This document shows positions 41,319 through 54,447 of a stretch of DNA of 64,000 bases, piece by piece. The stretch is from the sequence record OR769032.1. One strand, 5' to 3'. Below the pieces are notes generated by a model. The model saw only the letters and a list, made by a program, of their open reading frames with translations, was not told where the DNA came from and did no database searches. The stretch is from Escherichia phage JoYop. Each line of letters begins with the position of its first letter. Position 1 is the stretch's first letter. Made by a program: the position numbers and the translations under genes.

Positions 41319-41621
41319 TTATTTACCTTTAATTACTTTAGCTGCTTCGATAGCCGCTTGCTGAAGGTCATCCATAGACATACCGAATTTAGAAGCAAAG
41401 TTATCAATTTTCTTTTCGACAGCATTCAAAGGCTTGGCCTGTTTACCTTCATTAGCGCCAGGAAGAGCGAGAATACGCTCTTTGTCAATATAAAGGCTTA
41501 CAAGTTTCTTACGGTCTTTATCGGACAAATCATGAAATGAATGGGCCTTTTTATTTATAGCGGCTTCTAATTTACCTGCACTCACTCGCGCTTCAGTAAT
41601 AAATTCTTGATAGGTTTTCAT
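41319..41621 (-). CDS. ipII: internal protein II-like
   Basis: 100 aa; N-terminal capsid-targeting sequence MKTYQEFITEA; length matches T4 IPII. Confidence 0.75.
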   Translation of the reverse strand: MKTYQEFITEARVSAGKLEAAINKKAHSFHDLSDKDRKKLVSLYIDKERILALPGANEGKQAKPLNAVEKKIDNFASKFGMSMDDLQQAAIEAAKVIKGK

Positions 41622-41661
41622 ATGTTTCCTTTAATGTAAATAGATTTGAGTATTCGTTTTA

Positions 41662-42240
41662 TTAGGAATTACGGGCTGCATTAGCAACGGCGTAAGCGTA
41701 CTGAATATTGACGTCTTTAAACGTACCTTTGGAGGTATCTATTTCTGCCTTAAAGCCGCCTTTAGTCATAACATCGGCAAATTCTTTACGGAAAGCCATT
41801 GCATCAAGACCTTTCCATGATGATTTATGCTTAGCAAATTCAAGACCAGCGTAGTTGACAGCCTTAGCTAATTTATTATCAATAACCCATTTACCGGCTT
41901 TAGGTACAAACACTGGGCCTTTCTGTTTAGAGAATAGTTTTAAATTCCAACGACGAAGGTCACCGTCAGCTTTAACAAAAGCTGCGTCCAAGTTACTAGC
42001 AACAACATCTTGAATATGGCCAAATTTAAGCCCATCAACTTCAATATTTAGATCAGTACGCCAGCGAAGTCCTTCCCAAGCGAAAGCTTTAAAGTCAGAA
42101 GCTTTTGTAGCTAAGTACCGTTCAATAGGAGCCGTTTTAGGGTCAAAGCCGTTTCCCGATCGATAGGTCCACTCATCTTTATTAATGCCTTTGGCCTTTT
42201 CCACAGAAGCTTCAGCGATAAATTCTTTATACGTTTTCAT
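41662..42240 (-). CDS. ipIII: internal protein III-like
   Basis: 192 aa; N-terminus MKTYKEFIAEA; length matches T4 IPIII. Confidence 0.75.
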   Translation of the reverse strand: MKTYKEFIAEASVEKAKGINKDEWTYRSGNGFDPKTAPIERYLATKASDFKAFAWEGLRWRTDLNIEVDGLKFGHIQDVVASNLDAAFVKADGDLRRWNLKLFSKQKGPVFVPKAGKWVIDNKLAKAVNYAGLEFAKHKSSWKGLDAMAFRKEFADVMTKGGFKAEIDTSKGTFKDVNIQYAYAVANAARNS

Positions 42241-42259
42241 GTGTTTCCTTGTTTGTTTT

Positions 42260-42298
42260 GATAGAGTAATTATACCATATTAATACTTAAGCGTAAAC
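42260..42298 (-). promoter_or_regulatory. T4-type early promoter
   Basis: GTTTAC 42293-42298 with tggtataat -10. Confidence 0.45.
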
Positions 42299-42301
42299 TG
42301 T

Positions 42302-42562
42302 TTAAGCTTTACCGCCAGAAATAATTCCGAAGTTGTTAAAATCGTATCCAATATCGTCAACATCTACTTTAGGGCTTGCTACAACATAAGCAATTTCACT
42401 ACGTTTTGCATAGGTGTTTATTTCTTTACCATCACCGCCTAGGAAAGAATACCCATTACGTTTTAATGAGCCAAAGTCTTCCGCATCACCAATGAAAGCT
42501 TTAACTTTAAATTTAGGACCTTTGGCATCTGCTTCAGTGATAAATTCTTGATACATTTTCAT
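42302..42562 (-). CDS. internal-protein-like small protein
   Basis: 86 aa; N-terminus MKMYQEFITEA matches the IP capsid-targeting motif. Confidence 0.6.
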   Translation of the reverse strand: MKMYQEFITEADAKGPKFKVKAFIGDAEDFGSLKRNGYSFLGGDGKEINTYAKRSEIAYVVASPKVDVDDIGYDFNNFGIISGGKA

Positions 42563-42568
42563 TTTTCC

Positions 42569-42982
42569 TTAGTAAATTGATTTACCATAGTATTTGTACC
42601 AAGTAGGACGTTGAGCAATTTTTTCGTCTAAGCGTGCTTGACTTATCGCAATGGACGCTTCGGACGGGACATAATTATTACGAAATTCGGCAGGGATGTC
42701 AGAAATATCCTGGACAGATGTGTCCTTGATTTTGAAACCACGTTTCAAGCATTCGGCGATTAGCTCGATTTGACGTAAACGTAAAAATTCAAGTTTGTCG
42801 TAAAAGAATGTTACATGACCTGTGCCTAAGATAAATGTTGGAGAGATTTTAAAATCCTTTACACGTTTACCGTTTTGAACATGTTTACGGACTGCACCAA
42901 ATACGCGTGGTAATTCACGATACTCAGCCATAAGATGTTGGTCGGTCAGTTCAGAAACAAGTGTTAAATTGATACGAGTCAT
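42569..42982 (-). CDS. denV: endonuclease V (pyrimidine dimer DNA glycosylase)
   Basis: Start at [12 protein letters not shown] (138 aa); matches T4 DenV as recalled. Confidence 0.92.
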
Positions 42983-42997
42983 AATTTCCTCCAAGTA

Positions 42998-43039
42998 GTT
43001 GATGAATGTATAGTATCAAAGTCCTTGGAGGAAGTAAAC
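42998..43039 (-). promoter_or_regulatory. T4-type early promoter upstream of denV
   Basis: GTTTAC 43034-43039 with a -10 block at 42998-43018. Confidence 0.45.
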
Positions 43040-43040
43040 A

Positions 43041-43322
43041 CTATTTTTCTGAAGCGCCTGAAATATATTTTTCAAGACGTTGTTTCATCAGCGAGCCGTT
43101 CTTAGCGATTTCTTCCGGTTTATCGCACATACGCAACAAAGCTTCAAGCTTAACGATATCACTGGTACGTTCAAATTTGCGAGTATCTATCTTACTAGCA
43201 AGTTCAGAAATACGTGCTAATAGACTTTCGGCTTCAACCAAAGCTGCACCTAGCTTAGTTGCAAATGTGTCAGTAGCTTCGTTAAGAATAGATTCTGATA
43301 AAAATTCACTATATGTTTTCAT
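43041..43322 (-). CDS. internal-protein-like small protein
   Basis: ATG 43320-43322 ([11 protein letters not shown]), overlapping the e stop; 93 aa. Confidence 0.6.
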
Positions 43323-43807
43323 ATATACGCTTTCCAAGTTCCTGTTTTAAATGTTGAGATTACGCGTTTCGCGCGATTAGGTGTCTGACGGTACCATTTA
43401 GATTGGGCTAGATTTACTGCCGCTTCATCCCAACGTTTCTGTTGAAGCATACGAAGAGAATTAGTAAAACCAGCGACGCCTGCTACACCCATTTGGAAGA
43501 CCATATTGACCAACGCACATCGACGAACTGCATCTAAAGAATCATATACCGGTTTAAGTTTAGCATTACCCAAGATTCCGCGAACGGCTTTATCAACGTC
43601 TTCATTAAATAGCTTTTCAGCCTCATCAAGGGTAATTGTACCGTTGCATTTACGTCCGATCATTCTGTCAAGTTCAGCTTTAGCTACGGCTAAAGACGGG
43701 TTCTTTGTTACTAAATGGCCTATGCCAATCGTCCAAAAGCCTTCAGTGTCTTTGTATAAAGTCAGTCTAAGACCTTCATCTATACGTAACATTTCAAATA
43801 TATTCAT
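43319..43807 (-). CDS. e: lysozyme (endolysin)
   Basis: 162 aa; [15 protein letters not shown]...TIGIGH; near-identical to T4 lysozyme as recalled. Confidence 0.95.
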
Positions 43808-45523: not shown

Positions 45524-46079
45524 ATTTTTCTAATAATAAATCGCTTTCAAAATTAGGATTTTCCACGAATTTATCAAAAAGATCATCAACAATGGTTAAA
45601 ATATTCTTTTTGCTAAGAATACGTTTATTTTCATGCTTCGTTTCAGAATCAACTATAAGAGTAAAGAAATATTTCTTGCCACGAAATTTTACAGTAGTAT
45701 CAATATAAAATAAATTTGACTTTTGTAAATTACGTTTAAACCATGCGTCACTTAAACTATAAATGCCAAGATAATCATAATCGTCATTTAAATAACAAAC
45801 TGTCCATTCAGGAGAAATGAAATCAGTAAATTCAACATCAAAATCGCATGTCAATGAATGAATTGATTCAATACTTTTAATGAGTATTCCAGGACGTATT
45901 AAAGACTTTTTACCTCTACAAAATCTTCCAGAAAGGCTTTCATCAGTTTCATATGAAGACCCCCAATAGTAATTACGTCCTTCTGCCATGCGTTTAAGAG
46001 CATTTAGTAATTGGTCTGGAACATCAACCTGTCTTTGGAACTCTTCAAACATTGAATTGAAATCACTTTGCATTTTCAT
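45471..46079 (-). CDS. hypothetical protein, junction-motif family member 4
   Basis: 202 aa, soluble; C-terminal EKFVKECREYVK. Confidence 0.55.
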   Translation of the reverse strand: MKMQSDFNSMFEEFQRQVDVPDQLLNALKRMAEGRNYYWGSSYETDESLSGRFCRGKKSLIRPGILIKSIESIHSLTCDFDVEFTDFISPEWTVCYLNDDYDYLGIYSLSDAWFKRNLQKSNLFYIDTTVKFRGKKYFFTLIVDSETKHENKRILSKKNILTIVDDLFDKFVENPNFESDLLLEKFVKECREYVKAINVSSK

Positions 46080-46099
46080 TCCTATTTACTCCAAGTAAT

Positions 46100-46115
46100 A
46101 GGGGCCGAAGCCCCT
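46100..46115 (-). terminator. UUCG-tetraloop hairpin
   Basis: aggggc-cgaa-gcccct. Confidence 0.45.
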
Positions 46116-46120
46116 TATCA

Positions 46121-46714
46121 TTATTTCAGAGAATTAATGTATTCCTGAACATCGGCAGAGGTGGTTTCAACCCCAGAAATATTACCGTTAAAGGTTTCAA
46201 CTCGAGCAAGAGTATCTTCAATATCAACCTTAGTCAGTGCTGCAATTTCAACTACATCATCAGCAGTACTAATTCCAAGGGCATTCGCTGCACGAGTTTC
46301 ACGGATATATTCCAATTTAACTGCAAGTTCTTGGCGAGCATCATCTAACTCAACTACTTTCTTGGCGATTTCAATTCGCATTTCAGCATAACCATCAGCT
46401 TTAGTAGTTAACTGTTCAGCTGTTCGACGATATAACAAGCCGAGTTTAGCATGCATTGTTACATCTTGACCTTCGGAAAGAAGCTTACGAATTTCACGCT
46501 CTTTTGATTCGGCCTGCTTATTCTTTTCGACAATAAGTTCACGAATACGTTTTTCTTCATTAATAGATTTAACAGAAGCAGTTTTTAGGTCTTTAATTTT
46601 ATCAAGTAGTTTTGCTGCTGCAGCAGTATACTGTTCTTCAACAGATAGATTTTTAGCCATAGCAGAACCAAGTTTAGTGCGAATAAACTCAACAATTTTC
46701 TTCAGTGTGTTCAT
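46121..46714 (-). CDS. long alpha-helical coiled-coil protein (PspA/IM30-like candidate)
   Basis: 197 aa; charged heptad-rich sequence throughout; similarity to PspA judged by composition only. Confidence 0.5.
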
Positions 46715-46757
46715 AGTATTTCCTTAGGTTAATTAAGATTTAAAATCCATGAGAGTA

Positions 46758-46934
46758 TTATACTCCGGATAGTTTGTAAACTATTTTAACATCGCCTTTT
46801 GCTGCTTTATAACCTTCAGCCCAAGATACAACCGAGTTTTTATCTGAAGATTCAAATTCTGGCATTGGGCTTTCACCAATGTTCACACAATATGTTTCTT
46901 CATTTTCGTCGAACCAAATAGTTAAAGTAGTCAT
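46758..46934 (-). CDS. hypothetical small protein
   Basis: 58-aa minus ORF MTTLTIWFDENEETY...; hand-translated. Confidence 0.3.
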   Translation of the reverse strand: MTTLTIWFDENEETYCVNIGESPMPEFESSDKNSVVSWAEGYKAAKGDVKIVYKLSGV

Positions 46935-47002
46935 TTATTTCTCCGTTTCTATATTTGTTTTGATAAGTCTATAATAACACCGTCCTTGGTGTTTGTACAC
47001 AA

Positions 47003-47266
47003 TTATTTCATATTATTGAAATATTCTTCTGCGATTTCGTCGTTATCATGGTAAACTTTAGAAGACAGCTTAACATAACCTTCAGCAGTGAACATGTTAA
47101 TCACAACCTTTACAGTATACCACTGACCGTCTTCATTACCCATTACTGCATAGGTTTCAAACATCGGATGGTCAGGACCGATAACTTTAATATCATTCAC
47201 CGTACGACCAAAATCTTCTGAAACACATTTCATAAAGAAGTTGAACAGTTCACCGTAATTATCCAT
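47003..47266 (-). CDS. hypothetical protein
   Basis: Start at ATG 47264-47266 (MDNYGELF) with RBS GGAG; 87 aa; directly behind an early promoter. Confidence 0.55.
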   Translation of the reverse strand: MDNYGELFNFFMKCVSEDFGRTVNDIKVIGPDHPMFETYAVMGNEDGQWYTVKVVINMFTAEGYVKLSSKVYHDNDEIAEEYFNNMK

Positions 47267-47295
47267 TTCGTTCTCCAAGTTGTTTTCTGTATCAG

Positions 47296-47337
47296 TAGTT
47301 GATAGTTGTATAGTACCACAGAAGAACAGGGATGTAA
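47296..47337 (-). promoter_or_regulatory. T4-type early promoter
   Basis: GTTTAC 47332-47337 plus conserved -10 block 47296-47316. Confidence 0.6.
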
Positions 47338-47472
47338 ACAGTTTTGTGAAAAAATTTTTAAAAAGTTTTGGGGAATTCTAGGGCAGGGAGGGGCAATTAA
47401 AGGATAGGATAATATATTATAAAGGGTAGAAACTAAATGATGCCTAGAGAGGCCCGGAAAGGCCTAGATATC

Positions 47473-47497
47473 AAAAACCCCAACCTTTCGGCTGAGG
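47473..47497 (-). terminator. rho-independent terminator downstream of the IP-like gene
   Basis: On minus strand CCUCAGCC-GAAA-GGUUGGGG plus U-run; pairing needs G-U wobbles so works only on the minus transcript. Confidence 0.6.
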
Positions 47498-47506
47498 CTA
47501 AGAATG

Positions 47507-47980
47507 TTATTTGATTTGTTTAGCAGACCAAATGCGGTCTTTAATAATTTTTTGGATGTCTTCAACATACTCAAGAGAGTGAACATGCGGGTTATCTTTG
47601 AAACTATAAGCACGAGCTAGCTTTTGGCCTTCAGTTTTGATTACTAAAAGCTCTTTAAGGATAGCTTCATATTTGGAAATAATTCCTTTAACAATATTTT
47701 TCTCTTGTGCGACTTTAGGATCTGCTTTAGGAGCAGGTTTACCTGAAGCTTTTGCAAAAGCAGCTCCAGTAGCAACTAAACTTTTCCAAGCCATACTAAC
47801 TGCATTTCCCGTAAATCCTTCTGCTTTCATATCGCGAGCAAATTGGAATCGCGATTCATCAGAAGCATCTTTATAGGAATATTTACCCGCGGCAATGGCA
47901 GCTTTTGCGACAGCTTGAATTTCGGTGCTAGATGCTTCATTTAACACCGCTTCATTTAAAAATTGAGCATATGATTTCAT
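47507..47980 (-). CDS. internal-protein-like protein with capsid-targeting N-terminus
   Basis: 157 aa; MKSYAQFLNEA; RBS AGGAAA; own late promoter upstream; bounded by terminators on both sides. Confidence 0.65.
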   Translation of the reverse strand: MKSYAQFLNEAVLNEASSTEIQAVAKAAIAAGKYSYKDASDESRFQFARDMKAEGFTGNAVSMAWKSLVATGAAFAKASGKPAPKADPKVAQEKNIVKGIISKYEAILKELLVIKTEGQKLARAYSFKDNPHVHSLEYVEDIQKIIKDRIWSAKQIK

Positions 47981-48016
47981 CTTATTTCCTGTTTTAATTC
48001 GGGGTTTTAATATACT

Positions 48017-48024
48017 TATTTATA
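48017..48024 (-). promoter_or_regulatory. T4-type late promoter (TATAAATA)
   Basis: tatttata on plus = TATAAATA on minus, about 37 nt upstream of the ATG at 47980. Confidence 0.5.
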
Positions 48025-48026
48025 CT

Positions 48027-48053
48027 AAAAAGCCCCAACCTTTCGGTTGGGGC
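48027..48053 (-). terminator. rho-independent terminator
   Basis: Minus strand GCCCCAACC-GAAA-GGUUGGGGC followed by UUUUU. Confidence 0.7.
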
Positions 48054-48059
48054 TAAGCC

Positions 48060-48385
48060 TTGCGGCAACCTTGTCGGGGTTCCACCTGCTAAGGCAAGTG
48101 TTTGTACGAAACGCCGGGATTCGAACCCGGTTATCAAGCAGTTGACGCTACTCAATATTTTTAAAAGGCCATATCTCGACCATATCCGAACGTTCCGTCA
48201 AAAACGCTACTCGGCTTACGGCAAAGATATTTCCTCGAATCGATAATTCGGTGCGCCGTTTCTGCTGTGATATAAGGGAACATTAACAGATCGTAAAGAT
48301 TTGTTAATGCCGGTCCTTAAACAGGGAGCATCAGTCCGACGACTTACCGGTAGCGACCCGGTTTCTTAATATTCTTTTAAAGCAT
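48060..48385 (-). ncRNA. structured non-coding RNA region distal to the tRNA cluster (possible T4 stable-RNA homolog)
   Basis: No convincing ORF; tRNA-like T-arm gggattcgaacccgg at 48116-48130; bounded by terminator and tRNA-Arg side gene. Confidence 0.35.
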
Positions 48386-48389
48386 CAAT

Positions 48390-48716
48390 TTATTCACAGC
48401 GTTTACGCCATAAATCAATTGCTTCATAAGCGGATTCAGCATTTCGAATTAGCCGGCATTTATGTAAAGACTTATGATTTTGATATTGTGTAGATAATGG
48501 AATTGTATCTAAAAGGTCTTTACGATCAAAGTATTCGTAACCATCTAAACCAAATGAACGATTTTTGAGAAATTGCCAATGGCCAAATTCATTTTCAACA
48601 TAAACATAATCTGCATGCTGATAAAGCAAATTAATTACGCGTTCAGAAATAACAGTATCATTATGATTAAAATAAAATGTTAAATCATGAACTACTAAAT
48701 AAACATTACCTTTCAT
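48390..48716 (-). CDS. hypothetical protein inside the tRNA/ncRNA region
   Basis: ATG 48714-48716 with RBS GAGGA (MKGNVYLVVHDL...); 108 aa; track ORF over-extended into tRNA-Arg. Confidence 0.55.
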   Translation of the reverse strand: MKGNVYLVVHDLTFYFNHNDTVISERVINLLYQHADYVYVENEFGHWQFLKNRSFGLDGYEYFDRKDLLDTIPLSTQYQNHKSLHKCRLIRNAESAYEAIDLWRKRCE

Positions 48717-48734
48717 ATTTTCCTCACTTATAAT

Positions 48735-48811
<77 letters not shown>

Positions 48812-48815
48812 TATT

Positions 48816-48890
48816 TGGCGGACATGCATGGATTCGAACCATGGACCAATTGATTAACAGTCAACTGCTCTACCACTGAGCTACACATCC
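48816..48890 (-). tRNA. tRNA-Asn (anticodon GUU)
   Basis: GGATGTG...GCTCAGTGGTAGAGC D-arm, loop CTGTTAA, T-arm CATGGTTCGAATCCATG, CCA end. Confidence 0.8.
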
Positions 48891-48894
48891 AAAT

Positions 48895-48981
48895 TGGTGG
48901 GGAGTGATGGAGTCGAACCACCCGAGTCGCAATGACAATGGATTTACAGTCCACACCGCTACCTCTACGGGATAACTCCCC
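48895..48981 (-). tRNA. tRNA-Tyr (anticodon GUA), long variable arm
   Basis: Loop CTGTAAA; class II variable arm; acceptor GGGGAGT/ACTCCCC; CCA end. Confidence 0.75.
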
Positions 48982-48994
48982 TTAATTCTTAATT

Positions 48995-49069
48995 TGGTGG
49001 CCCTGGGTGGAATTGAACCACCATCTGGCGATTATGAGTCGCTTGCTTGAACCTTCCAGCTACAGGGCC
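48995..49069 (-). tRNA. tRNA with CAU anticodon (Met, or Ile if the wobble C is modified as in T4)
   Basis: Loop CTCATAA; acceptor GGCCCTG/CAGGGCC; T-arm GGTGGTTCAATTCCACC. Confidence 0.75.
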
Positions 49070-49070
49070 T

Positions 49071-49146
49071 TGGTGCTGATTGACGGAATCGAACCGCCGA
49101 CCTTCTCATTACAAGTGAGTTGCTCTACCTACTGAGCTAAATCAGC
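49071..49146 (-). tRNA. tRNA-Thr (anticodon UGU)
   Basis: Loop CTTGTAA; acceptor GCTGATT/AATCAGC; T-arm GGCGGTTCGATTCCGTC. Confidence 0.8.
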
Positions 49147-49150
49147 AAAA

Positions 49151-49241
49151 CTGGCGGAGGCGATAGGATTTGAACCTATGAGTCGCCGGAGCGACTGCCG
49201 GTTTTCAAGACCGGTGCATTAAACCACTCTGCCACGCCTCC
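49151..49241 (-). tRNA. tRNA-Ser (anticodon UGA), long variable arm
   Basis: Loop CTTGAAA in CCGGT/ACCGG stem; class II variable arm; acceptor GGAGGCG/CGCCTCC. Confidence 0.8.
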
Positions 49242-49243
49242 AG

Positions 49244-49317
49244 TCTCCATACAAGGATTTGAACCTTGGACCTCCTGATCCCAAATCAGGCGCTCTACCA
49301 AACTGAGCTACACGGAG
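49244..49317 (-). tRNA. tRNA-Pro (anticodon UGG), CCA not encoded
   Basis: Loop TTTGGGA; C1-G72 acceptor; 3' end abuts tRNA-Ser without CCA. Confidence 0.75.
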
Positions 49318-49327
49318 TAAATTAAAT

Positions 49328-49401
<74 letters not shown>

Positions 49402-49406
49402 AAATT

Positions 49407-49493
49407 TGGTGCGAGAAGTGGGACTCGAACCCACAAGGAAATCATTCCGCAGCATTTTAAGTGCTGTGCCTTTACCAATTTGACCATTCTCGC
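49407..49493 (-). tRNA. tRNA-Leu (anticodon UAA), long variable arm
   Basis: Loop CTTAAAA in CAGCA/TGCTG stem; class II variable arm; T-arm GTGGGTTCGAGTCCCAC. Confidence 0.8.
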
Positions 49494-49499
49494 GCTATA

Positions 49500-50132
49500 T
49501 TATTTATTACGTGAAAAAGACTGTTCTATCAATTCTGGACACTTTCGTTCTATCCATTTTCTAGCTTTTTGTGGGCTTATACCTATTATTTTAGCAGCTT
49601 TACTAACCCATCCAAATTTAGAATAATCGATTTTAACTAATTCTTCGTAAATTTCATCAGTTAAAATCTTTTCATTAATATTTACCAGTAAATGATATAA
49701 TTTATTATCATTAGCAATTTTAATGAATCTTTTATAGTTTCCGCCTTTACTTAAACCTAATGAAGTAATTGCAGATGATATAGTAGCCGAATTTAATAGT
49801 GCGTTTAAAATTTCTTCATCACTAACATTATAACGCTTTTTATTATTTTTAATATTTTTACCAGCAAAAGTATCAGTTTGCGAATGGCAATTTGGACATA
49901 ATAATCTTAAATTTGATTTAAGATGATTTTTGTTATTTCCATCAATATGATCTAATTGCAGAACAATATGCTTATTTTGCCATTTTGAAATTTTACAAAT
50001 TGCACACTCATATGGAAAAATATTTTCTTTTATTATTTTGTCTTTCAGCTTTCCTGTACTAAAATTTGGATGTTTTCCTTCAAAAATTTCAGCTAATTTA
50101 GTATCCATAATATAATTCCCAATTATTAACAA
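49500..50132 (-). CDS. HNH homing endonuclease
   Basis: 210 aa; HNH core LQLDHIDGNNKNHLKSNLRLLCPNCHSQ; sits at the 5' head of the tRNA cluster. Confidence 0.75.
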   Translation of the reverse strand: MLIIGNYIMDTKLAEIFEGKHPNFSTGKLKDKIIKENIFPYECAICKISKWQNKHIVLQLDHIDGNNKNHLKSNLRLLCPNCHSQTDTFAGKNIKNNKKRYNVSDEEILNALLNSATISSAITSLGLSKGGNYKRFIKIANDNKLYHLLVNINEKILTDEIYEELVKIDYSKFGWVSKAAKIIGISPQKARKWIERKCPELIEQSFSRNK

Positions 50133-50218
50133 AGGCTCTCAAGCAAGAACCCTTGATGATAGAGGGTATTAATCAGTGCGATATGAGTTAATAATAACAA
50201 ATAATTCTTAAAGCATAT

Positions 50219-50506
50219 TTACCATTTATGCCGATACGTATTTACGATACATTCAAGACCCAAAGGATTCTTGAAAACATCATATTCAAGAGGACCTTTT
50301 TCTGTTTCAATAAAGAAATCAAAATTTACTATATTAAATTTACGGTCTTCCTTTACTAATTTAACTTGAGAAGATGAACGGTCAATGTAAACCTTTTCAA
50401 CTTCAAAACATGTTAAAATGCCATAATCATCAATCAAGGCTTTAGCTGCTTCTTGATCATATTTATATCCATTTTCAACGGATGATACTTTCGCATAAAG
50501 AATCAT
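50219..50506 (-). CDS. hypothetical protein
   Basis: 95-aa ORF. Confidence 0.5.
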   Translation of the reverse strand: MILYAKVSSVENGYKYDQEAAKALIDDYGILTCFEVEKVYIDRSSSQVKLVKEDRKFNIVNFDFFIETEKGPLEYDVFKNPLGLECIVNTYRHKW

Positions 50507-50508
50507 TA

Positions 50509-50889
50509 TCAGCCTTCATCAACAATAGTGTGCGTATTGGCATTTACAATTTGCCACCAATCAAAGCGATTAGAACCATACATTGGTTTGTTCTCATTTT
50601 CTTTAATGATATCACGGAGTTCATCTTCGGTAGCAGCTTTCGCGATTAAATCGGCATATCCACCACGAGGATAATAATTATCACCTGCAAAAAGTAAAAA
50701 ATTTGGTGTAATATTATTAAACTCTTCAAGAGTAATAACTGTTCCACCAGGTTGAACAATTTCTACATATTTATATCCTAATTTTTGAGCAGCATCTACT
50801 GCTTCAAGCAGGGTATCATGGGCCCATCCAATTTGGCAATCTGGCTTTTCAGATGGATTAGCCTGATAATCCGCGTACACTTTATACAT
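50509..50889 (-). CDS. hypothetical protein
   Basis: Start taken at MYKVYADYQANP; about 126 aa. Confidence 0.5.
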   Translation of the reverse strand: MYKVYADYQANPSEKPDCQIGWAHDTLLEAVDAAQKLGYKYVEIVQPGGTVITLEEFNNITPNFLLFAGDNYYPRGGYADLIAKAATEDELRDIIKENENKPMYGSNRFDWWQIVNANTHTIVDEG

Positions 50890-50890
50890 T

Positions 50891-51076
50891 CTATTCACCT
50901 TTAGAAATTTTATCCATAACAATAGCGATTAAACCAATTAAAAATGCTACTACAAGTGAAAAAACATTTTCTGCTGTAGTTAATAATCCGCATATAAATC
51001 CAACAAACATTGAAAAACTAAAAGCAGAAGCAGAAATTGCAATAGCAACATTTCGAATTAATTCACAACGTTTCAT
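50891..51076 (-). CDS. small membrane protein
   Basis: 61 aa; two hydrophobic segments; directly behind an early promoter. Confidence 0.5.
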   Translation of the reverse strand: MKRCELIRNVAIAISASAFSFSMFVGFICGLLTTAENVFSLVVAFLIGLIAIVMDKISKGE

Positions 51077-51090
51077 TTTATTCTCCTCGG

Positions 51091-51134
51091 TAGTTGATAG
51101 GGTAATAGTATCACTACCCCATCTAAAAGTAAAC
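51091..51134 (-). promoter_or_regulatory. T4-type early promoter
   Basis: GTTTAC 51129-51134 with -10 block ggtagtgatactattaccc on the transcribed strand. Confidence 0.45.
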
Positions 51135-51144
51135 AGTTTATAAA

Positions 51145-51453
51145 CTATTTTATTCCGCGTGATGCAATTGTATTCTGTCGTTTAACACTAGTTTGTTTAA
51201 AGTCATGATTGTCGATTTGATCGGTACGAGCAACCCCGAATGATGATTTAATCTTAGCTTTAGATCCTTTAGTTATAGAAATAAACATCTCGGAAGCCCC
51301 TTTCTTAAAGTCAGAAGCGATTACTTCAACACCGTTCTTAGCAAGTGACCCCAGAATTGCCTCCGCATACTCATCGTCAAGACTAGCCTGAGTATTAATA
51401 ACGAATGTCTTTGGTGCAACTGCTTCATTGATAAATTCTTTGAAAGTTTTCAT
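51145..51453 (-). CDS. internal-protein-like protein at the ipI locus
   Basis: 102 aa; N-terminus MKTFKEFINEA; adjacent to 57B as T4 ipI is; body differs from what I recall of T4 IPI. Confidence 0.6.
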   Translation of the reverse strand: MKTFKEFINEAVAPKTFVINTQASLDDEYAEAILGSLAKNGVEVIASDFKKGASEMFISITKGSKAKIKSSFGVARTDQIDNHDFKQTSVKRQNTIASRGIK

Positions 51454-51480
51454 TTTATTTTCCTAATTAATTTTGATGAG

Positions 51481-51513
51481 ATAATAGTATCACTACCTCA
51501 TCAGTATGTAAAC
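51481..51513 (-). promoter_or_regulatory. T4-type early promoter upstream of the ipI-locus gene
   Basis: GTTTAC 51508-51513. Confidence 0.45.
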
Positions 51514-51525
51514 AACTTTGTGAAA

Positions 51526-52222
<697 letters not shown>

Positions 52223-52223
<1 letters not shown>

Positions 52224-52936
52224 TATAGTACCTTTAGTGTATTTTTAATTTTAGAAAAAAGTTCTTCAAGAGAACCATCGTTTGTAATTACTAAATCGCC
52301 ATCACGAATTGGCAATCCAGCTTCTGTAATATGTGTATCATTGGATTTTTGACCAGGACGAACTACATGAATTACTGTAGCACCCATCGCCCTAGCCGCA
52401 TCCATTTCATGATCTTGACGAGTATCAGGAACGATATAATAATCATAACCTGAGTTAAATTTATCAAGATAATCTAAAGCAAATAATTTTACCCAATACA
52501 TGCGATCGAAGTTATTAACAATCAAATCCGTACCTAGGGCTTGCATCAGACGACGGACTGACCATTGATCTTCAATAGTATTTATAACGTCAGCAATCTT
52601 GTTAAATGCTACGAAATTAACTGCGTCATCAAAAACAAACACACCTTTAATCGGGCTTTTACTATTAAGATAGCAAAATGCTTGTTCCATAATCGTGATT
52701 ACTTCTAATTTAGTCAGATTTAAATTAGTCTCACGATCATAGTCAATTCCTTCAAACTCTTTACGAGTTAAGCAAGGATAGCCAGTGTTTGCTGCAAATA
52801 CACCCCATGCATAAGCTAATGCGTCCTTAATAGGACCAGCAAGTTGGTATTTAACTGCAGAATAATTGCTCATTATAAAATCAGCAGTAGTATCTTTTCC
52901 ACTGCGCTTTACACCGCTTAAAAAGATTAGTTTCAT
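52223..52936 (-). CDS. 1: deoxynucleoside monophosphate kinase
   Basis: Start at MKLIFLSGVKRSGKDTTADF; P-loop GVKRSGKDT; matches T4 gp1 as recalled. Confidence 0.9.
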
Positions 52937-52985
52937 GTGTTTCTCCTCAAATTTAATTAAGATTATAACACACAAAACTGAAGCA

Positions 52986-53516
52986 TTAAACTTCTGCTAT
53001 AATTTTACCATCTTTTTCTACTTGAAAATAGGTGTAAGGAATCGTTGCAGTACATACTAAAGCCGGGTCTGAATCTTCTGTGTAGCTAAATTCTACTTCA
53101 GATAGGTCAGAAACCCAAGGCTTATAAAAATTTATTGACATCACGATTTCGGTTTTGCTATTATCTAAGATGTAAAGCGTAATGTACTCAGGACCAGTTT
53201 TTTGAGCAGTATTTTCACCTGTAAGATAGTTGCTAGTTCCTAGCATCCATTCATACATTCCTATCCATGACTTAAGTTCTTCATCAACTATAAATCTCAC
53301 GATGAGTGGATCGTATTCAAATGTAACACCTGGACGTTGTGCTCGGCCTAGTCCAAACGGCCCAGTCACGGTATCAGTAACAGGTATTCTAATTCCTGGA
53401 ATAGGAACTGACTGAGCATTTAAAGTAAAAGCAGATGTAGTATTACTATGTGGTATTGATATTACAAAGTTAGTTGTATTTGCTTGGTTAAAAATTTGTT
53501 GCAGAGCTTGCGACAT
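52986..53516 (-). CDS. 3: tail completion / sheath stabiliser protein
   Basis: Start at MSQALQQIFNQANTTNF (176 aa); matches T4 gp3 as recalled. Confidence 0.9.
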   Translation of the reverse strand: MSQALQQIFNQANTTNFVISIPHSNTTSAFTLNAQSVPIPGIRIPVTDTVTGPFGLGRAQRPGVTFEYDPLIVRFIVDEELKSWIGMYEWMLGTSNYLTGENTAQKTGPEYITLYILDNSKTEIVMSINFYKPWVSDLSEVEFSYTEDSDPALVCTATIPYTYFQVEKDGKIIAEV

Positions 53517-53622
53517 ATATTCCTCATAATGCTTTATAACTGTTGGTGGTATAATGGGTCTAAGTCCCTTCCATTCAATTCCATTTAGAACAAACAACAG
53601 AAAAGAATGGAAGATAATAGAA

Positions 53623-54447
53623 TTAAATATTTGACCAGACTTTGTTTGCAGAGAAACGTTTTCCTTTTGAAACGAACTGCTGAAGTGGCATCAACACAAC
53701 GTTCGCCCAGTCTTTCGGGGCGATTTCAACAAGGCTACCCATAATATTACCAGGTATATATGCCTTAATCATTTGGTCTGCACCCCTAAATCCTTTCACT
53801 TGACTCCAATCAATTTTTAATCTTGTTTTGTTAGTAATAGTAGGTGTATTTGAATATTGCTTTAAAAGCTCTTCTAGAAACTGTTGACGAGCTTTAGGTG
53901 GAATATAGTGCAAGTTCAATCCATACATTAAATTATGTTTACCTAAACCAAGGTAAATTATCAAAGGAAATTTATCCCAGTAAGGAAGAGTTTCCTTGTG
54001 TTTAGCATCATAAGCAAAAGCATATATTCGTCCCGGCTGCGGGCGAACAACTTTATGTCCTTTTACTTGCTTAATAGTTTCAGCAAACCACTTTCTGGTT
54101 TTATTATTAATTGCTGCGCCTTCATTACGAATTTTATCGCGTAATGATTGTCTGAATGAATTTATCATAAGCAGTTGTCTTTCTTGCTTATTGAGTTTAT
54201 TCATTGGTTTTGATTCAAGCTTTTGAATCTTTTCGGCAGTTTTAATTCCTGAAGCATATTTTGACATTGCTGAAGTAAATGTAGAGTATTTGATTCCTCT
54301 TTCTTCGGCAAATTGCTTTCCTGTCATTCCTTTTGCTTTGGCCTTTTTATATTCAAGACCTATCTGAATCCATTTCTTTTCGTTTAATGATTGCTTAACC
54401 TTTGGAACTTGGGGAGTGCTTTCATTAATTATCTGAAAAATAGCCAT
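53623..54447 (-). CDS. 2: DNA end protector protein
   Basis: 274 aa; length and position match T4 gp2. Confidence 0.88.

Follow-up and report, generated by a model that had tools for sequence, protein, structure and literature searches.

Three internal proteins of T-even phages have each been matched to a GmrSD restriction enzyme: Ip1 blocks GmrSD-CT596, Ip2 blocks GmrSD-ECOR21 (BrxU), and Ip3 blocks GmrSD-ECOR17; none of the three cross-protects against the other enzymes (PMC12373910). A further protein, Bas37_0260 of phage KarlGJung, carries a capsid-targeting sequence (CTS), is encoded in the slot between 57B and tRNA.4, and inhibits McrBC (bioRxiv 10.1101/2025.11.20.689424). The CTS of IPIII has been defined experimentally, with positions 4 and 7 acting in targeting and positions 8 and 10 in processing (PMC9026906), and shuffling at internal-protein loci has been ascribed to promoter and stem-loop elements (PMC2839356, citing Repoila 1994). 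We compared with these systems the gene that adjoins 57B in Escherichia phage JoYop, using a stretch of 64,000 nucleotides from sequence record OR769032.1 (the window; all coordinates refer to it). An original prediction made from the sequence alone had presented this gene as a divergent, new allele of T4 ipI. Our analysis shows that it is ip7, an interchangeable internal-protein gene of T-even phages, which here replaces T4 ipI.

Identity, predicted processing, and predicted structure of Ip7

The protein encoded next to 57B matched RB15 Ip7 at 99 of 102 positions (97% identity, E = 1e-72) and was 96% identical to RB32 Ip7 and 95% identical to the product of T2 ip7. Relative to RB15 and G8, the JoYop protein carries the substitutions A12V, K35G, and G89S. 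Its residues 1 to 102 aligned with positions 1 to 101 of phrog_2667, annotated "internal head protein" (E = 4.3e-41), and NCBI entry WPJ67755.1, an internal head protein of Escherichia phage JoYop, has the identical 102-residue sequence. The Ip7 proteins of RB15, T2, and CC31 share with it the same length, the targeting sequence, and the slot between 57B and tRNA.4. Ip7 is a family separate from IPI that was deposited in 1994, and both alleles occur at similar frequency in sequenced phages, with tblastn homologues in 283 phage records for Ip7 and 291 for T4 IPI. The description of the gene as a new allele thus does not stand: the gene, its name, its annotation, and its cassette-flanked mobility are already in the public record, and the locus adds no new sequence feature. 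The gene is under purifying selection and is not a chance open reading frame (ORF), as indicated by the full-length phrog_2667 match, the 283 records, and pairwise ratios of nonsynonymous to synonymous substitution of 0.06 to 0.14 among six ip7 genes, save one pair that had no nonsynonymous differences.

For Ip7, no Pfam family scored above threshold (best E = 0.058, to unrelated families), and searches of NCBIfam and of PDB sequences gave no significant match. The small family forms 34 clusters at 90% identity and is confined to T4-like phages. In an exhaustive hidden Markov model search of 1.84 billion representatives, only three representatives of the Ip7 family were recovered at E < 1e-10. 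Beyond the family, the search recovered two weakly related proteins with a CTS, P0036 and P0037 (hhalign probability, 95 to 96%), the first of which had no match in the phage collection. P0038, a repetitive match of 764 amino acids (aa), looks spurious and was set aside.

As had been predicted, the gene next to 57B begins with the capsid-targeting start MKTFKEFINEA, and the rest of the protein is unlike T4 IPI. BLASTP against IPI (from NC_000866) gave one weak alignment with 33% identity over 52 residues (E = 4e-4), in which the block match covered the first 7 residues only; local alignment gave 18% identity, and an hhalign comparison of a 29-homologue Ip7 profile with IPI aligned 9 columns at a probability of 24%. 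High identity over the mature domain, which would have marked the protein as IPI, was absent. T4 IPI, the inhibitor of GmrSD from E. coli CT596 (PDB 2JUB), does share with Ip7 its genomic slot, the identical first seven residues MKTFKEF, a protease motif, small size, and the flanking cassette. However, homology ends at the targeting sequence, with none detectable in the mature part. The propeptide of IPI has 19 residues and is cleaved at I-T-E/A, so that IPI* in 2JUB starts at residue 20, whereas the Ip7 site follows residue 10. The two proteins also belong to different PHROG families (2667 for Ip7 and 4363 for IPI), and the JoYop protein is 97 to 100% identical to long-known Ip7 entries. The idea that this is an ipI allele whose mature domain has drifted toward a new target is thus refuted, and we assign it a negligible probability.

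The other T4 internal proteins are similar to Ip7 at the N terminus. IPII and IPIII have a nearly identical 10-residue targeting sequence ending in xEA and basic mature proteins, as does Ip7; 8 of 11 positions of the Ip7 N terminus agree with their sequence MKTYQEFIAEA. The similarity is limited to the first 11 to 20 residues, and the mature domains of these two proteins (the GmrSD-ECOR21 and GmrSD-ECOR17 inhibitors, respectively) are unrelated to that of Ip7 and are encoded at the other internal-protein locus. The window encodes both of them as well, at 93% (IPII) and 94% (IPIII) identity to T4. Bas37_0260 resembles Ip7 in being a small CTS protein encoded in the 57B-tRNA.4 slot between flanking cassettes, but it has 77 aa, belongs to phrog_8111, and is like Ip7 in the targeting sequence only. 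No copy of it was found in the window. The proposal that this McrBC inhibitor is itself Ip7 was rejected, as it is a different protein with Ip5 as its neighbor.

The N terminus MKTFKEFINE conforms to the pattern MKT[FY][KQ]EFIxE, with an aromatic residue at position 4, Phe7, Ile8, and Glu10, and M1, E6, F7, I8, and E10 are invariant in 29 Ip7 homologues. Ip7 contains a single prohead-protease motif of the form [LI]xE (I-N-E/A, residues 8 to 11), and cleavage by gp21 is predicted between Glu10 and Ala11. The predicted mature protein has 92 residues, a mass of 9.9 kDa, and an isoelectric point (pI) of 9.5, compared to 9.8 kDa and pI 9.7 for the IPII homologue in the window. In an AlphaFold2 model built with the 29 homologues (mean pLDDT, 75.5), residues 12 to 80 were predicted confidently, while the propeptide and residues 83 to 102 were disordered. 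The order of strands (E) and helices (H) is E15-21, H27-39, E43-49, E55-62, H65-69, and E74-80, which predicts a generic ferredoxin-like core without a functional clue. The fold matches listed for the model include ACT, RAM, HMA, and RRM domains, ribosomal protein S6, and subtilisin/PCSK9 prodomains, at 3 to 22% identity; 2JUB is not among them. Since these matches are spread over many unrelated superfamilies, they point to a shared fold rather than to family membership, and profile searches did not place Ip7 in the ACT or other ferredoxin-like families. The core has a nearly neutral pI of 6.5, and residues 82 to 102 of the tail are basic (pI 11.1). In the tail of the 29 homologues, N94 is invariant, and R92 and T95 are nearly so. 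The residues invariant outside the propeptide are K15, L25, D26, I33, V44, K51, K62-G63-S64, K67, V74, and N94.

Locus, flanking cassettes, and transfer between genera

The ip7 gene is the only gene between 57B and tRNA.4, one of the two variable loci at which T-even internal-protein genes are found (the other is the e/denV region). The claim that a capsid-targeted internal protein is encoded at the variable ipI locus therefore holds, as both slot and targeting sequence agree. The gene lies downstream of 57B across a 72-nucleotide (nt) spacer (51454-51525). The lower bound originally given to the gene, 51091, takes in 54 nt of 3' spacer in addition to the ORF, and this spacer contains a conserved intergenic cassette (Table 1).

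Table 1. Features of the ip7 locus and of the second internal-protein locus in the window
Feature	Coordinates	Strand	Description or basis
gp2	53623-54447	-	
gp3	52986-53597	-	
Gene 1, dNMP kinase	52223-52975	-	
57A	51981-52223	-	
57B (Acb1 anti-CBASS phosphodiesterase)	51526-51981	-	Upstream neighbor; Pfam PF23474, E = 2.6e-60
Upstream intergenic cassette	51473-51514	-	T4 early-promoter-like, overlapped by hairpin
Shine-Dalgarno AGGA	51461-51464	-	7 nt before ip7 ATG, read from sequence
ip7 coding sequence	51145-51453	-	102 codons and TAG stop; ORF list
CTS/propeptide MKTFKEFINE	51424-51453	-	Residues 1-10; match to T4 IPII/IPIII CTS
Predicted folded core	51214-51420	-	Residues 12-80; beta-alpha-beta-beta-alpha-beta
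C-terminal tail	51148-51213	-	Residues 81-102; basic, predicted disordered (pLDDT < 55), conserved R-Q/M-N-T motif
Downstream cassette copy	51094-51135	-	Before tRNA.4; direct repeat of upstream copy
tRNA.4 (61-aa predicted membrane protein)	50891-51076	-	Downstream neighbor; phrog_1692, E = 6e-35
Lysozyme e	43319-43807	-	
93-aa CTS protein, Ip5 family	43041-43322	-	phrog_3499
denV	42569-42982	-	
86-aa CTS protein	42302-42562	-	Start MKMYQEFITE
IPIII homologue	41662-42240	-	181/193 identical to T4
IPII homologue	41319-41621	-	93/100 identical to T4

Two 42-nt direct repeats, 81% identical to each other, bracket ip7. Each carries a T4 early-promoter-like GTTTAC(A), a 17-nt spacer, and TACTAT, with a hairpin of 12 to 13 bp over the -10 element and a Shine-Dalgarno sequence downstream. 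In the upstream copy, the -35 element GTTTAC is at 51508-51513 and the -10 element TACTAT is at 51484-51489, and the 13-bp hairpin spans 51474-51503 (-14.8 kcal/mol, z = -3.8). The hairpin of the downstream copy spans 51096-51123 (-16.1 kcal/mol, z = -3.7). The upstream cassette differs from the T4 57B-ipI spacer at one aligned position. When 12 spacers from four phages (JoYop, T4, RB15, and Bas37) were aligned, the cassette preceded every internal-protein allele as well as tRNA.4, and the -35, -10, and Shine-Dalgarno GGA elements were invariant; ip7 thus has the cassette typical of T-even internal-protein genes. Downstream of ip7 the spacer is of hybrid make-up, with a 5' half that matches the spacer between ip7 and ip8 of RB15 and a 3' half that matches the T4 ipI-tRNA.4 spacer, as expected from recombination inside the cassette. 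This agrees with the published view of cassette-mediated shuffling (PMC2839356). An Rfam scan of 48000-52500 returned only tRNAs and sub-threshold noise, with no match at ip7.

The content of the slot varies among phages. As in JoYop, ip7 is alone in phage G8, the best DNA match (96.5%), while the slot holds ip5-ip9-ip7-ip8 in RB15, ip5-ip9-ip7 in RB32, and ip5-ip7 in T2. Comparison with Karamvirus CC31 indicates that ip7 was transferred laterally, since Ip7 is 92% identical between CC31 and the window, compared to 36 to 57% for gp3, gp1, 57A, and tRNA.4. To judge from these sequence comparisons, ip7 is a mobile cassette gene that has moved between phage genera. 57B is also far closer to its CC31 counterpart (80%) than the core genes are, which suggests joint transfer of Acb1 and Ip7 as an anti-defense module. 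In CC31 itself (locus L010, 2046-2809), no cassette separates 57B from ip7, and the two genes overlap (ATGA).

Homologues of Ip7 were also found in other genomic settings. In Dhakavirus JS98 (locus L006, 2001-2300), a homologue with 49% identity lies between denV and vs.8 and not at the 57B locus, and in Klebsiella phage JD18 (Jiaodavirus; locus L007, 2001-2306), a homologue lies among unannotated hypothetical genes. The internal-protein locus that Ip7 occupies thus differs from genus to genus. The tblastn records come from phages of Escherichia, Klebsiella (62 records), Enterobacter (27 records), Citrobacter, Salmonella, and Erwinia, whereas IPI records are almost entirely from Escherichia/Shigella-type phages. 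This wide host spread of Ip7, against the narrow spread of IPI, suggests that any target of Ip7 is widespread in the Enterobacteriaceae.

The surroundings of ip7 follow the T4 gene order, all on the minus strand: gp2, gp3, 1, 57A, 57B, ip7, tRNA.4, tRNA.3, tRNA.2, an HNH endonuclease, and the tRNA cluster. The proteins flanking ip7 are 96 to 100% identical to their T4 counterparts, which assigns the window to a Tequatrovirus; tRNA.4 is 100% identical, as is 57B over the aligned length. The HNH homing-endonuclease-like ORF (210 aa, 49500-50132, minus strand; phrog_14736, E = 6e-124) directly follows tRNA-Leu and stands where T4 and G8 have tRNA-Gln. No tRNA-Gln was among the nine tRNAs detected by ARAGORN in 46000-51000. 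Lutter, Ozark, and HY03 are among the phages, at least 63 records in all, with matches over at least 80% of this stretch, and the layout in Bas37 is alike.

Other genes for putative packaged proteins in the window

The second internal-protein locus (41319-43322, minus strand) is larger than in T4, and its order is changed from the T4 arrangement e-ipIII-ipII-denV (Table 1). At least five CTS-bearing proteins are encoded in the window. The 86-aa protein of the second locus also matched phrog_2667 (E = 2.7e-21, residues 1 to 84), but only 42 of its columns aligned with the Ip7 profile (probability, 92.5%), mainly in the targeting sequence. From these alignments, the protein could be a distant paralogue of Ip7; alternatively, phrog_2667 may be heterogeneous. 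In addition, a 157-aa ORF at 47507-47980 (minus strand; phrog_2280) starts with MKSYAQFLNEA, which is CTS-like and has an L-N-E/A protease site. By this start, it could encode an additional packaged protein at a site other than the two classical loci.

Candidate functions of Ip7

The best explanation of the data as a whole is that Ip7 is packaged, processed, and injected and acts as an inhibitor of type IV restriction, a reading that we consider to have an even chance of being correct. Its parts differ in strength. Packaging, cleavage, and injection are very probable, on the grounds of the targeting sequence and the analogy to T4 IPI, IPII, and IPIII. The 10-residue N-terminal CTS would bring the Ip7 precursor into the scaffolding core of the prohead, the prohead protease gp21 would then cleave after Glu10, and the basic mature protein would stay in the head and enter the cell with the ejected DNA. 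There it would be specific for a subtype other than those inhibited by Ip1, Ip2, Ip3, and Bas37_0260. An anti-restriction role against a type IV target outside the tested set is plausible by this analogy but falls a little short of an even chance. Inhibition of type IV restriction is nevertheless the best guess for Ip7, because all four characterized T-even internal proteins act in this way through unrelated mature domains. To that extent, the suggestion of the original prediction that the protein may have a different restriction target was reasonable.

Several observations weigh against an injected type IV inhibitor. A 2025 study challenged a panel of GmrSD variants with expressed ip4 to ip10, and an apparent interaction between ip7 and CLS_011 "could not be reproduced" (PMC12373910, Supplementary Fig. 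9). The protection assay that the original prediction proposed has thus in part already been carried out without a positive result. T2 is restricted by GmrSD-ECOR21 and GmrSD-ECOR17 (PMC12373910). Because T2, whose reference genome carries ip7, is still restricted, Ip7 would appear not to block either enzyme, assuming that the T2 stock carries ip7. The generic predicted fold shows no resemblance to a known inhibitor, and no mass-spectrometric evidence for Ip7 in virions was found in the searchable literature. A late promoter would be expected for ip7, because internal proteins are needed when heads are built, but the 57B-ip7 spacer contained no late-promoter consensus TATAAATA. The nearest same-strand copy is at 52579-52586, inside gene 1 and 1.1 kb upstream of ip7, and late expression of ip7 presumably occurs by read-through.

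A related reading is that Ip7 is an injected inhibitor of a defense not yet linked to internal proteins, either a modification-dependent nuclease other than GmrSD or another early-acting system, that E. coli, Klebsiella, Enterobacter, and Citrobacter have in common. We regard this as possible, although fairly unlikely. Were it true, it would account for the distribution of Ip7, which of all internal proteins has spread most widely among the genera of the Tevenvirinae, and also for the recent exchange of Ip7 together with Acb1 between Tequatrovirus and Karamvirus.

It is unlikely, but worth weighing, that packaged and injected Ip7 counters a defense other than type IV restriction or serves another role in early takeover, such as DNA-end protection or nucleic-acid binding through its lysine-rich surface and basic tail. 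The negative or irreproducible outcome of the GmrSD screen is consistent with this, and the fold class includes the ligand- or RNA-binding domains RRM, ACT, and HMA. The invariant lysines K15, K51, K62, and K67 and the basic tail point in the same direction, as do the occurrence of Ip7 in phages of six host genera, where IPI is nearly confined to those of Escherichia and Shigella, and the travel of ip7 beside the anti-defense gene Acb1/57B. A role for Ip7 as a nucleotide-signal sponge beside Acb1 was considered and rejected; the protein is absent from the sponge-discovery preprint.

We consider it improbable that Ip7 is a bulk structural protein that serves head assembly, DNA condensation, or ejection without a specific host target. 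The pI and mass of mature Ip7, near those of IPII, would suit such a role, and each T4 head contains about 360 copies of internal proteins, with IPIII mutants showing slow head assembly (PMC9026906). However, the folded core of Ip7 is near neutral and strongly conserved, and T4 remains viable without any of its three internal proteins (PMC9026906). Moreover, the slot varies in presence or absence of its genes, which are swapped among phages, and this fits an accessory function rather than a structural necessity.

With respect to the type IV reading, four T-even internal proteins have now been matched to type IV targets, and Ip7 is as common as IPI and far more widespread across genera. The JoYop window offers no special handle on the target beyond T2, G8, or RB32. 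Finding the target of Ip7 would broaden the known arms race of injected proteins with restriction, and it would aid host-range prediction for T4-like phages used in therapy.
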